DNA from: a phage
DNA: 64,000 bases
Sequence record: PZ019085.1
Reading direction: 5' to 3' (one strand)
The notes beneath the pieces were generated by a model. The model was given only the letters and a program-made list of their open reading frames with translations, was not told where the DNA came from and did not search any database. The position numbers and the translations under genes are program-made. Shown here in pieces: positions 39,116 through 42,971 of this stretch; the first letter of the stretch is position 1; every line of letters starts with the position of its first letter.

Positions 39116-39324
39116 ATATACATTATCCACATCCATATGACCCAAAGAATAAGGCAGTAATTATTCGTCAATGGGAACGCATTTGTCGTACCAAATGTCC
39201 AATTAATAGTCCACATGATGTAGATAAAGACTACATCGGAACATTCGTTGAATATACCTTTATTGATAAGAAAGGCCATAAACAACATGTAGAAGAATAT
39301 TGCTTAAAGGTGACATGGCTATGA
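39112..39324 (+). CDS. hypothetical protein
   Basis: 70 aa from ATG 39112 overlapping the macrodomain stop. Confidence 0.5.
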   Translation: MNIHYPHPYDPKNKAVIIRQWERICRTKCPINSPHDVDKDYIGTFVEYTFIDKKGHKQHVEEYCLKVTWL

Positions 39325-39527
39325 GTCAAACAAAAATTCTTACAGGTGCTAAATGCGAAAAATGCGAATGGCCTGTAGTTTTTGCTTTATGCAATGACGA
39401 AATGGCTTGTGATTTTGATTATTGGTGTTACTGTTCGAACAAAGGTTGTAGCAATCATAAAGGTGAAGGGTTTTACTCAGGATTTTACCCTTACCCAGAT
39501 TTCGTTAAAGAAGGTGAACCTAAATGA
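39315..39527 (+). CDS. Cys-rich small protein (putative zinc-binding)
   Basis: 70 aa; CEKCEW...CNDEMACDFDYWCYCSNKGCSNH. Confidence 0.5.
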   Translation: MAMSQTKILTGAKCEKCEWPVVFALCNDEMACDFDYWCYCSNKGCSNHKGEGFYSGFYPYPDFVKEGEPK

Positions 39528-39706
39528 AATTAACTAAAGAAGAGAAAGCTAAACTGTTTGAACTTATTCATGACCTATTGGATGAGCAAGCAGCCACCAA
39601 TGCGTACGATGAATATGCTCCTTTAACAGATGAAGAATATCAAGCATTGATGGAATCATTTGACAGGAAAGAACAAGAACTCATTGACTACGTGAATTCA
39701 CTATAA
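39524..39706 (+). CDS. hypothetical acidic protein
   Basis: 60-aa ORF directly upstream of tk. Confidence 0.5.
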   Translation: MKLTKEEKAKLFELIHDLLDEQAATNAYDEYAPLTDEEYQALMESFDRKEQELIDYVNSL

Positions 39707-40324: not shown

Positions 40325-40537
40325 ATGCAGCAATTAAACGAAAGACAACTTCGTAATCTTACTGTAACCCAATTGGATGAAATCCGAAGAGAATTAGGAC
40401 ATTCTATTTCTCATTTAAACGAGGATATCCGTCAAACTGGTTCTAAAGCTGATTATACACGCAAGCGCAAGCTGGAAAAATACCTCACAGATGTTAAGGC
40501 CGTCCAAAGGCGAAAAATAAATACTGGCCAAAATTAA
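40325..40537 (+). CDS. hypothetical protein (T4 rI.-1 position)
   Basis: 70-aa ORF between tk and rI. Confidence 0.55.
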
Positions 40538-40549
40538 CAGGAGGCCTAT

Positions 40550-40852
40550 ATGGCCTTAAGAGCGATAGCTGTCATGGCGATGCTGGGGTTTTTTGCAGCA
40601 ACAACTCCTAACGTTGGTACTGCGTACACCGACCCATATTTTGATAACTTTATGGAATCAGGGATTAAAAACGTATATACTTTGTTTGAAATTCAAAATG
40701 TCGAGAATTCTGAAAAATTCTATAAGTATATGGCAAAGCATTACAAAAATAGCCCCTGTGACGATGCATTTGAATGTCATGAACAAGGCATAAAAACTGC
40801 CAGACAATTTGCCGAGTTCATGAAAATAAAATTAGAGCCTACATCTATCTAA
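40550..40852 (+). CDS. rI: lysis inhibition regulator RI (antiholin)
   Basis: 100 aa MALRAIAVMAMLGFF...DPYFDNFMESGIKNVYTLFE...; matches T4 RI as recalled, incl. N-terminal signal-anchor. Confidence 0.9.
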   Translation: MALRAIAVMAMLGFFAATTPNVGTAYTDPYFDNFMESGIKNVYTLFEIQNVENSEKFYKYMAKHYKNSPCDDAFECHEQGIKTARQFAEFMKIKLEPTSI

Positions 40853-40859
40853 TTTACTA

Positions 40860-40887
40860 GCCCCTTCCTTACGGTTGGGGCTTTTTT
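40860..40887 (+). terminator. rho-independent terminator
   Basis: GCCCCTTCC-TTAC-GGTTGGGGC hairpin followed by TTTTTT, just after the rI stop. Confidence 0.65.
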
Positions 40888-40897
40888 GCATTTAGCA

Positions 40898-40935
40898 GTT
40901 TACTTCTCCTCAGGTTGTGTTATAGTAGACCTTAC
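40898..40935 (+). promoter_or_regulatory. early promoter cassette (PeSL-like)
   Basis: GTTTAC...GTGTTATAGTAGACC. Confidence 0.5.
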
Positions 40936-40953
40936 TTACTAGAGGAGAACGTT

Positions 40954-41133
40954 ATGACACGTAAAGAAAAGATTTCTAAGTTGATGTTTTTGATTGAAGA
41001 GTACGCTAATGCGGTATCTGATTGGGAAAATGCTCATGGTTGCGAAGATGGAGACATCGACATTAACAGAGCTATGAAAAAGATGGCCGATGCCCACACC
41101 GAATTGCAAATGTATGTTAACGAGATTATGTGA
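40954..41133 (+). CDS. hypothetical protein
   Basis: 59 aa from ATG 40954 (SD GGAGAA). Confidence 0.5.
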   Translation: MTRKEKISKLMFLIEEYANAVSDWENAHGCEDGDIDINRAMKKMADAHTELQMYVNEIM

Positions 41134-41140
41134 GGATATT

Positions 41141-41305
41141 ATGCTTTACGATTATACTGGAAAATCTGAAGACGGTGTACTTGAACTTTTACCTGAAAGC
41201 GCTGAAGATGATATGGTAGTGATGTTTTGTGTCGGTTGTCAATCAATGCGTGATGAAATTTTTAAACGTGAACCAAGAAACTGTTGGCACAGGAGCATGA
41301 GATGA
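41141..41305 (+). CDS. small Cys-containing protein, MLYD paralog 1
   Basis: 54 aa MLYDYTGKSEDGVLELLPESAEDD..CVGC; SD GAGGA; paralog of 41397. Confidence 0.5.
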   Translation: MLYDYTGKSEDGVLELLPESAEDDMVVMFCVGCQSMRDEIFKREPRNCWHRSMR

Positions 41306-41397
41306 TTTACTATCTTGAACCTTGGGCTTGGTTAACAATGGCTATAGGGCCTGTTTTAATTGGTTTATTCTTTTCATGGTTAGCGAGGAAACTGTAA
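41302..41397 (+). CDS. 31-aa hydrophobic micro-protein
   Basis: MIYYLEPWAWLTMAIGPVLIGLFFSWLARKL; SD AGGAG; ATGA overlap with both neighbours; below ORF-track size cutoff. Confidence 0.4.
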   Translation: MIYYLEPWAWLTMAIGPVLIGLFFSWLARKL

Positions 41398-41612
41398 TGT
41401 TGTATGACCCAAGTGGTAATTTTGAAAATGGTGTGATTGTTCTGGAACCTGAGCATCCAGTTGGTGACGTATACCGCCCAGTTGAAGTATGCGAATGTAA
41501 TTTTGTTGCAGGTAATACTGGTGGGATTTCCATTGAGCAAGATGATGATGTTATTTACCTGGATGCAAGCCAAGTAGAAGCGCTTTATAGTATTTTAAAA
41601 CACAATCGGTAG
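41397..41612 (+). CDS. small Cys-containing protein, MLYD paralog 2
   Basis: 71 aa MLYDPSGNFENGVIVLEPEHPVGD..CEC; SD GAGGAAA. Confidence 0.5.
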   Translation: MLYDPSGNFENGVIVLEPEHPVGDVYRPVEVCECNFVAGNTGGISIEQDDDVIYLDASQVEALYSILKHNR

Positions 41613-41650
41613 TTTACGTCTTGGTAGGACTATGATATAGTAATCCTACC
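41612..41650 (+). promoter_or_regulatory. early promoter with inverted repeat (PeSL-like cassette)
   Basis: GTTTAC then GGTAGGACTATGATATAGTAATCCTACC palindrome. Confidence 0.55.
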
Positions 41651-41669
41651 AAAACAAATGGAGAACAAA

Positions 41670-41780
41670 ATGAAACTTTTGCTTATCGCTTATGTTGTAG
41701 TACAATACAATTATCCGATGTTTACTTATAACATGGTAAACGGCATAGTGAATCTTATTGAAACGAGTATGGTAAAATGA
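41670..41780 (+). CDS. 36-aa small ORF
   Basis: MKLLLIAYVVVQYNYPMFTYNMVNGIVNLIETSMVK; SD GGAGAA; first ORF after the promoter cassette. Confidence 0.35.
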   Translation: MKLLLIAYVVVQYNYPMFTYNMVNGIVNLIETSMVK

Positions 41781-41956
41781 CCCGTGAACAAGCTAATAAA
41801 TTGATGGACCTTATCCATGACTTACGTGAAGCCGATTCAGATTTGAATGATGTAGCTTATCATGCGGTAAATGATAACGTAGACTTTTATGAAAATCAGG
41901 TTGATGCTTGCCAGGATGCTTTGGTGAATTTTGTTGAAACTTTAATTGGTGAATAA
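41777..41956 (+). CDS. 59-aa acidic small protein
   Basis: MTREQANKLMDLIHDLREADSDLNDVAYHAV...; ATGA overlap with upstream ORF. Confidence 0.4.
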   Translation: MTREQANKLMDLIHDLREADSDLNDVAYHAVNDNVDFYENQVDACQDALVNFVETLIGE

Positions 41957-41957
41957 T

Positions 41958-42488
41958 ATGAAAACTGTAATTGAAACAACCGAGTTGTTTGGTGATTTAT
42001 GTATCGAAAAACGTGGTCATGTGTATGTTCTGACACAAGAAGATGATGCGGTCACTATTCTTCCTATGGAACTGGACAAGATTTTGAAACTCAATCCACC
42101 AGGCCATGCATCTGTAATTAACATTGACGAAGACCTTCAAGTTCGTTTTTATCATGGACTTTATAGTGGGGTTAATATCGAAACTGAAGACGAATGTTTT
42201 TCTATTAATAATTGGAAAACATTCGTCACTAAGGTGAAAGAATTCATGGAATCTGAAACAGCCAAAAAGGCCAAACTTCAATGGGCTAAATGCCGTAATG
42301 CTTTTATTACAAATCAGGACCGCCCTGACTATACAACAGTCCTAGGCGTTAATCCTTCGTATGAAGATGGTGACGTCGTAGTTATTCGCCAAATTGACGA
42401 CCTTCGTCAACATATCATTACATTAGACAAAGATGAAGCAGTTGCTCTTAAAGCTTATCTTGATTCTATTATCCCGACTTTGAAATAA
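41958..42488 (+). CDS. hypothetical protein
   Basis: 176 aa from ATG 41958. Confidence 0.6.
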   Translation: MKTVIETTELFGDLCIEKRGHVYVLTQEDDAVTILPMELDKILKLNPPGHASVINIDEDLQVRFYHGLYSGVNIETEDECFSINNWKTFVTKVKEFMESETAKKAKLQWAKCRNAFITNQDRPDYTTVLGVNPSYEDGDVVVIRQIDDLRQHIITLDKDEAVALKAYLDSIIPTLK

Positions 42489-42497
42489 GGAATTATT

Positions 42498-42971
42498 ATG
42501 ATTATCAATGAAAACTCTTGGCACTTTAAAATTTATGCCATGTTCAATAGTACATGGCATCGTCCGAAAACGTTGTGTGCTTATTTTTGGAAAACGTTAA
42601 TCCCAGTATTGGCTGTTTCAATTATTGGATTTGCTATTTTAGCAGCAGTCGTAATCATTGGCCAGGAATTTTTAACTAGATTCTTTGTTTTTAGCAGTCT
42701 ATGGACATTAGTTCCGGCCTCAATTGGCGTAGGCATTTTAATGGTAGCAGTCATGGCTTTTATTGCTACCGGGTTGGTAATTGGCCCGTCTTGGTTGTTA
42801 GACAAATATAACGACAGAAAATATTATAAAGAAATTGAGCTCATTGCACAAAACCAAGAACGAATTAAAAATGGACTTGAGCCTATTGAACGTAAGAAAT
42901 CATTAATAGGTGAATACCTTAAAGCTCGTAAAGAAAAAATCTGTCCTACTCTTGAATATAAGGCTAAATGA
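42498..42971 (+). CDS. integral membrane protein, hypothetical
   Basis: 157 aa with about three hydrophobic helices (LIPVLAVSIIGFAILAAVVII, VFSSLWTLVPASIGVGILMVAVMAFIATGLVI). Confidence 0.6.
   Translation: MIINENSWHFKIYAMFNSTWHRPKTLCAYFWKTLIPVLAVSIIGFAILAAVVIIGQEFLTRFFVFSSLWTLVPASIGVGILMVAVMAFIATGLVIGPSWLLDKYNDRKYYKEIELIAQNQERIKNGLEPIERKKSLIGEYLKARKEKICPTLEYKAK

Follow-up and report, generated by a model that had tools for sequence, protein, structure and literature searches.

Three small open reading frames (ORFs) overlap one another in the early region of a T4-like phage, and the first and third of them begin alike, which raises the question of whether they are a duplicated pair built around a tiny gene or were brought together in some other way. 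The ORFs lie on the + strand of the 64,000-nucleotide phage DNA analysed here (record PZ019085.1, called the window below), and we refer to them as ORF1, the micro-ORF and ORF3 (Table 1). A first-pass annotation had placed all three exactly where we find them and with exactly the same N-termini. It had read ORF1 and ORF3 as intragenomic paralogs encoding small Cys proteins, which would make up a co-translated functional unit together with the micro-ORF between them. Our analysis suggests a different origin for this arrangement.

Table 1. Features of the locus in window coordinates, and related genes of other phages in coordinates of the segments compared
Feature	Coordinates	Strand	Basis or remarks
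Terminator, a GC-rich hairpin with a T run after it	40859..40882	+	Fold -17.1 kcal/mol, z -3.55; 3' of the rI-like gene
T4 early-type promoter-like site, TTTACT N16 TATAGT with TG	40899..40926	+	Promoter scan
MobD.2a-like gene, 59 aa	40954..41133	+	Pfam DUF7438, E=1.4e-16; 97% nucleotide identity to GADS24
ORF1, 54 aa	41141..41305	+	ORF list
Left junction, 12-nt imperfect microhomology GTGATnTnTTGT	41219..41230	+	Three-way alignment of window, GADS24 and VR20
Putatively imported patch of Gaprivervirus type	41231..41593	+	Holds the 3' end of TraR, the micro-ORF and almost the whole donor DUF7189 gene
Micro-ORF, 31 codons	41302..41397	+	ORF list; PHROG 12165, E=8e-25
ORF3, 71 aa	41397..41612	+	Pfam PF23819, E=9.8e-30
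Right junction, homologous crossover in shared TTTAAAACA	41594..41602	+	Three-way alignment
Promoter-like site of T4 early type (41613-41641) with an interleaved stem-loop (41618-41655)	41613..41655	+	Resident backbone
TraR/YbiI-like gene, VR20	segment 2501-2758		
TraR/YbiI-like gene, UPEC01	segment 2501-2758		
TraR/YbiI-like gene, L021	segment 418-675		
TraR/YbiI-like gene, PEi20	segment 701-958		
Dhakavirus TraR deletion, QL01 and Bp7	segment 860-905		Compared with JS98 segment 640-905

The 801 bp around the locus are 95-99% identical to the phages JN02, HX01, JS09, ST0 and PhAPEC2, and by sequence identity we assign the window to Mosigvirus, as a T4-like coliphage of the JS09/HX01 kind. The locus belongs to a variable early region, bounded by the lysis-inhibition gene rI on one side and by mobD.1/nrdC.11 on the other. 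On its upstream side a stem-loop closes the preceding transcription unit, at a place whose homolog in phage SA79RD is annotated as a rho-independent terminator, and is followed by a promoter-like site whose SA79RD counterpart is annotated as a T4 early promoter. The unit opens with the MobD.2a-like gene, which belongs to the resident Mosigvirus backbone. Downstream of ORF3 a single element ends the unit and starts the next one: its stem-loop (fold -15.7 kcal/mol, z -2.05), at a place where a terminator is annotated in SA79RD, sits between the -35 and -10 hexamers of the site TTTACG N17 TATAGT found by the promoter scan. Both this element and a second pair at 40859-40926 are combined terminator/promoter elements of the PeSL kind. 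The MobD.2a-like gene and the three ORFs look like a single early transcription unit, which would be read as one early mRNA from the upstream promoter to the downstream stem-loop. An Rfam scan of 40500-42200 gave no match.

Other small genes are packed around the locus. True intragenomic paralogs occur nearby, namely the MobD.2a-like gene and a Tk.1-like gene (41777-41956), which encode 59 aa each and both match Pfam DUF7438 (E 1e-16 and 1e-15), and a 60-aa ORF at 39524-39706 has an N-terminal pattern resembling these two proteins and is a possible third paralog. Upstream of a Tk.2-like gene, an ORF at 39300-39527 with a TTG start encodes a Cys-rich protein of 75 aa (CEKCEW...CNDEMACDFDYWCYCSNKGCSNH), which corresponds to RB32ORF111c-like hypothetical proteins of relatives.

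The N-terminal likeness between ORF1 and ORF3 is real, with 12 of 25 residues identical and a BLASTP E-value of 4e-6, but it ends at residue ~30. On the DUF7189 profile ORF1 scores 35.7 bits (cut-off 27) over positions 1-33 of 68 only, and it is not matched at full length. BLASTP divides the protein into two parts: residues 1-30 match P0020, a 68-aa DUF7189 protein, and residues 27-54 match the last 28 residues of P0017, an 85-aa protein of the TraR/YbiI family (PF01258), the identity to the TraR-family C-terminus being 68% beyond residue ~30. The DNA divides in the same way. The codons for residues 1-30 are 97% identical to the Mosigvirus GADS24, in which the DUF7189 gene is intact with 68 aa, and those for residues 31-54 are 94-98% identical to the 3' end of the Gaprivervirus-type TraR/YbiI-family gene, corresponding in origin to P0017 residues 62-85. 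Judged from these alignments, ORF1 is a chimera, in which the first 30 codons of a resident DUF7189 gene are joined to zinc-finger codons of the TraR/YbiI family for the last 24 residues.

The mosaic extends over the whole locus. By BLAST, the identity of the window to GADS24, a standard Mosigvirus, is 97.2% at 40910-41230; at 41215-41602 it is 94.3% to the Gaprivervirus VR20, and at 41571-41720 again 96.0% to GADS24, with the segments overlapping at 41215-41230 on the left and at 41571-41602 on the right. The identity of the patch itself is 94.3% to VR20, 92.3% to UPEC01 and 98.1% to pEC-M719-6WT.2. The last of these carries the TraR gene, the micro-ORF and the DUF7189 gene intact, with a micro-ORF peptide equal to that of the window and a DUF7189 protein that differs by one residue.

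Both junctions could be placed by the three-way alignment. At the left junction the window agrees with the resident gene up to 41230 (...GTGATGTTTTGT) and with the TraR gene from 41231 on (GTCGGTTGTCAA). All that both parents have in common here is GTGATnTnTTGT, which places the crossover within the 4 nt TTGT at 41227-41230. The reading frame is preserved across this crossover by chance. On the right, the donor DUF7189 gene continues through ...TATAGTAT and the resident gene resumes from CACAATCGGTAG onward, the crossover lying in the conserved LKHNR codons of both DUF7189 genes. The boundaries differ somewhat between carriers: the left junction reads 'MF' in the window, JN02 and JS09 and the donor-type 'IY' in ST0, ZQ3, DCP548, AV110, PhAPEC2 and SA79RD, and in SA79RD the right crossover is earlier, with the resident sequence resuming sooner in ORF3. 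Such shifting boundaries are compatible with ongoing recombination with phages whose resident gene is intact, and also with more than a single event.

Both parental arrangements are found intact. In GADS24, as annotated, mobD.2a is followed by a single DUF7189 gene of 68 aa, and most Mosigviruses likewise have one intact 68-aa DUF7189 gene after a mobD.2a-like gene. At the equivalent place the Gapriverviruses and Dhakaviruses have a TraR/YbiI-family gene (85 aa), a 31-codon gene and a DUF7189 gene of their own; the order in VR20, UPEC01 and pEC-M719-6WT.2 is mobD.3, TraR, micro-ORF, DUF7189 and mobD.1, where the TraR gene and the micro-ORF overlap by ATGA and the micro-ORF and the DUF7189 gene by TAATG. 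The intact resident gene was counted in ~134 records and the chimeric arrangement in 21; scans of IMG/VR returned mostly the same isolates again. We infer the direction of transfer, into Mosigvirus, from these frequencies and from the intactness of both parental genes elsewhere, rather than from a rooted phylogeny.

We consider it very probable that the locus is a recombination mosaic in the hyperplastic early region between rI and mobD.1, and not a purpose-built unit of three genes. As the sequence shows, about 370 bp of a TraR-micro-DUF7189 arrangement replaced the interior of a resident DUF7189 gene in the lineage to which the window belongs. The left crossover used the 4-nt match within the 12-nt microhomology and, being in frame, created ORF1; the right one was homologous, in the last conserved DUF7189 codons. 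The outcome is one chimeric remnant gene and two intact imported genes, the micro-ORF and ORF3, which may have been the selected cargo. ORF1 and ORF3 thus begin alike as two versions of the same gene, one resident and one imported, that now stand next to each other.

What ORF1 might still do depends on which parts of its parents it has kept. F-plasmid TraR, lambda Orf73 and E. coli YbiI belong to the TraR/DksA C4 zinc-finger family (PF01258), which binds within RNA polymerase's secondary channel (PMC9239242, PMC6970531). Three elements are named as functional in TraR: an N-terminal helix, which carries DxxDxA and extends to the active site of RNA polymerase, a globular C4 domain, and a helix at the C-terminus (PMC9239242). 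P0017 matches E. coli YbiI (2KGO, 1e-9) and F-plasmid TraR (5W1S, 8e-5) and shows the CxxC-N17-CxxC pattern of a C4 finger (C40xxC43, C61xxC64). The homology of ORF1 residues 27-54 to the end of P0017 covers the second CxxC, seen as CVGC with C30 and C33, and the C-terminal segment; the first CxxC is absent, and in place of the acidic DxxDxA helix ORF1 has an N-terminus derived from DUF7189. ORF1 has no C4 site because both the N-terminal helix and the first CxxC are missing. In comparison with TraR it keeps only part of the C4 domain and the C-terminal helix, and is a fragment rather than a member of the family.

An alternative hypothesis is that the fusion produced a new functional gene, for example with a metal site made of C30, C33, C48 and H50, whose product acts on RNA polymerase or serves as a decoy. 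The Cys and His residues are present at these four positions, the frame is open in most carriers (in eight of the nine patch-carrying loci examined ORF1 is open, in frame and overlapping the micro-ORF), and the retained C-terminal segment is a helix which in TraR contacts Si1 of the RNA polymerase beta subunit (PMC9239242). However, codon 48 is changed to a stop in PhAPEC2 (TGT>TGA) while the other two genes are retained there, the protein databases hold ORF1 variants of 36 aa (a frameshift) and 49 aa and a C30Y variant, the elements that ORF1 lacks, the DxxDxA-type helix and the first CxxC, are critical for TraR function (PMC9239242), and PF01258 in Pfam does not match ORF1. We regard a new function of this kind as improbable. 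In the relatives compared, ORF1 appears to be dispensable or decaying, and we think that it is most likely a functionless remnant of the fusion since it is damaged in relatives and has lost most of the TraR elements as well as the C-terminal half of DUF7189. Its translation would merely deliver ribosomes to the micro-ORF.

A few further observations concern the parents of ORF1. At 41207-41212 there are two GAT (Asp) codons in the window, JS09, SA79RD, ZQ3 and PhAPEC2, and three at the same site in GADS24, ST0, AV110 and DCP548, a difference suggestive of slippage by a triplet within the acidic linker that the N-terminal part of DUF7189 contains. Two short metagenomic contigs encode other joined proteins: in P0022 the same DUF7189 N-terminus (MLYDYTGKSEDGVLELLPES) is followed by an unrelated acidic C-terminus, and in P0016 a different N-terminus is followed by the same 30 C-terminal residues of TraR. 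The 85-aa C4 protein of the TraR/YbiI family is encoded by strictly lytic T4-like phages of the genera Gaprivervirus, Dhakavirus and Kanagawavirus, and tblastn found relatives of it in 699 phage records. Its N-terminus reads FAKDGAEQ and not the DxxDxA of TraR. T4-like phages already remodel RNA polymerase.

ORF3, in contrast to ORF1, is a full-length member of its family, DUF7189 (PF23819) or PHROG 4844 of T4-like phages, which includes RB69 ORF107c, VR7 gp104 and SP18 gp102. Its profile match covers positions 1-68 of 68 with 103 bits against the cut-off of 27, an alignment with 11 family members runs over its whole length and has 22 invariant columns, and it is 94% identical in amino acids to VR7 gp104. 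By the junction alignment ORF3 is a donor-type DUF7189 gene, the last ~3 codons and the stop of which come from the resident gene. The protein is acidic (net charge -10) and its predicted fold has four strands and a helix, of which ORF1, sharing only the N-terminal ~30 residues, lacks the C-terminal half, i.e. strands three and four and the LDASQVEELYSILKHNR helix. Membership in DUF7189 says nothing about mechanism.

A DUF7189 profile search of 1.84 billion representatives gave only 14 matches, essentially all from T4-like phages, and no distant family. One protein of the representative library, P0028 with 2874 aa, contains eight stretches that match profile positions 2-54. We considered a relation of DUF7189 to the C-terminal domain of MobD.1/y05I; hhalign gave it a probability of 1.7%, hmmscan an E-value of 0.099 in two of 12 members, and Foldseek on BFVD listed y05I_C proteins at E 0.33-0.65, and we do not claim this weak lead. 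The annotation of the protein as DUF2283 in one GenBank record was rejected, as 12 members gave no DUF2283 match at E<=10.

With both proteins described, the reading of ORF1 and ORF3 as paralogs within a functional three-gene unit can be weighed. It draws on their N-terminal similarity, on the match of both to DUF7189, and on the overlapping stop and start codons and the Shine-Dalgarno sites of all three ORFs. The first-pass annotation had itself named a similarity limited to the first few codons as evidence against paralogy, and the alignment gives essentially this. The two halves of the ORF1 DNA come from different phage lineages, making ORF1 a DUF7189/TraR fusion instead of a duplicate arisen within the genome, and the donor-type phages have the TraR-micro-DUF7189 order with no second DUF7189 gene. 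The truncation of ORF1 in PhAPEC2, where the other two genes are kept, also argues against a unit of three. The Cys pairs that had been taken as a common trait are indeed present, CVGC in ORF1 and CEC in ORF3, but they have unrelated origins, and where ORF3 has C33 and C35, other members of the family have L/V/S/T/F and W/K. We consider the paralog reading very improbable, and it is already largely refuted by the mosaic.

The recombination mosaic leaves the micro-ORF as an imported gene in its own right. Its 31-aa peptide, for which the first-pass annotation had predicted a single TM helix, has one hydrophobic stretch, WLTMAIGPVLIGLFFSWLA, with a Kyte-Doolittle mean of 1.78 over 19 residues, followed by RK. 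It is probably a single-pass membrane peptide, and the positive-inside rule would put its C-terminus inside. In 104 phage records a match spans 80% or more of the micro-ORF, with 84-100% amino acid identity. In all of the 19 sequences examined from Mosigvirus, Gaprivervirus and Dhakavirus (11 of them unique) the gene is intact with 31 codons. The 11 unique sequences give pS 0.208 and pN 0.054, a pN/pS of ~0.26 that is rough for so small a sample; the synonymous changes are spread across the invariant N- and C-terminal parts, and the replacements, which are conservative, are limited to codons 11-18. This pattern of substitutions is that of a genuine gene under conservation.

The micro-ORF has a history apart from that of the TraR gene. 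Dhakaviruses such as QL01 and Bp7 have lost the TraR gene by a deletion between two 7-nt CTGTTGG repeats, which left a stub of seven codons (MADGTGA), and they retain the micro-ORF, its Shine-Dalgarno site and the DUF7189 gene. Judged from the sequences, this deletion is an event independent of the window patch. The Edwardsiella phage PEi20 lacks a micro-ORF and links its TraR-like gene straight to its DUF7189 gene through TAATG (segment 940-965), which indicates that the micro-ORF is a lineage-specific insertion of ~93 nt at that junction in the coliphage lineages. We rejected an origin of the micro-ORF from part of a DUF7189 gene by frameshift or duplication, an idea prompted by the likeness of 'QEHEMIYYLEP' to 'QDDDVIYLDAS' and by similar first codons; the upstream residues are the TraR C-terminus, and local nucleotide alignments to three DUF7189 genes were no better than shuffles, of which 785, 330 and 91 per 1000 reached the observed score. 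The micro-ORF and DUF7189 have together outlived the destruction of the TraR gene on two independent occasions, once by the Dhakavirus microhomology deletion and once by the patch transfer seen in the window, and horizontal transfer brought the patch into Mosigvirus at the expense of the resident DUF7189 allele. One could speculate that the 31-codon peptide and DUF7189 form a selected two-gene early module. We hold this only tentatively and think it rather unlikely; if it were so, it would point to a membrane-associated role in host takeover or anti-defence, the first role for this family, and would suggest that DUF7189 and a TraR-like, RNA polymerase-binding phage protein were ancestrally linked in function.

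The overlaps between the ORFs have a simple source as well. ATGA overlaps had been reported at both ends of the micro-ORF; the first is there at 41302-41305, but the second is TAATG at 41395-41399, where the stop (41395-41397) and the start (41397-41399) share 1 nt. Shine-Dalgarno sites (GAGG/GAGGA/AGGAG) lie 7-12 nt upstream of all three starts, that of the micro-ORF being AGGAG. Stop/start overlaps with a Shine-Dalgarno site inside the upstream ORF are what the sequence of a coupled operon has, and the locus shares them with the overlapping small genes of T4-type phages, which have the same ATGA and TAATG junctions. Compared with those genes nothing here is distinctive, since several neighbouring gene pairs of the window overlap in the same way, and 4-nt overlaps of the ATGA type are found at 39524-39527, 41777-41780 and 42968-42971. 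Tight packing is the normal style of this genome and not a special feature. The tight coupling of the locus is inherited from the donor order TraR-micro-DUF7189 and was not built around ORF1. The inherited overlaps would allow translational coupling, and every ORF also has a Shine-Dalgarno site of its own. The micro-ORF is kept where the upstream gene stops 18 nt earlier (PhAPEC2) or is reduced to the 7-codon stub (QL01/Bp7), which suggests that strict coupling of the micro-ORF to ORF1 may not be needed. Finally, a programmed -1 frameshift joining ORF1 and the micro-ORF into one membrane-anchored protein could make use of the six codons by which the micro-ORF frame is open upstream of its ATG, overlapping the end of ORF1, but we give this almost no credence, as there is no slippery heptamer, no stable structure downstream (41270-41320, fold z +0.11), and the micro-ORF's own AGGAG and ATG are conserved in all relatives, including the QL01/Bp7 stub and PhAPEC2.

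The locus is an instance of an exchange that is well described in T4-like phages, in which small-gene cassettes are replaced between lineages in hyperplastic regions (Arbiol et al. 2010, PMC2839356; Comeau et al. 2014, PMC4122927). The shared features are a place in a hyperplastic early region, flanks made of promoters and stem-loops, and a difference between close relatives that comes from the exchange of a small-gene cassette with another T4-like lineage. In contrast to PeSL-mediated exchange, both junctions are inside ORFs here and not in the flanking PeSL elements. As both junctions are within coding sequence, the result is a chimeric ORF and not a clean cassette swap. The process is known and ordinary mosaicism for such phage regions, and what is new is a cleanly resolved example, so that the locus leaves the current understanding unchanged.

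Annotation of these genes is uneven among the public records, and PHROGs assigns each of the three to a family of its own. The expectation that annotation would miss them holds in part: some records omit the micro-ORF, but several annotate all three genes. In several GenBank records they appear as hypothetical proteins (SA79RD_101-103, JS09_077-079, VR5_097, VR7ORF105c and UPEC01), with the micro-ORF being SA79RD_102, VR5_097 and VR7ORF105c.

The locus gives a base-resolved example of how a chimeric ORF is born in a T4-like phage, with microhomology at one junction and homology at the other. Its main message is a caution: when two small ORFs next to each other in a hyperplastic region of a phage genome begin with similar residues, they can stem from a patch exchanged between lineages and do not have to be a functional pair born of duplication. 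For work on the early genes of T4-like phages, it draws attention to a conserved gene for a 31-aa membrane peptide that is often left unannotated, and to a TraR/YbiI-like gene in strictly lytic phages that is recurrently adjacent to DUF7189.
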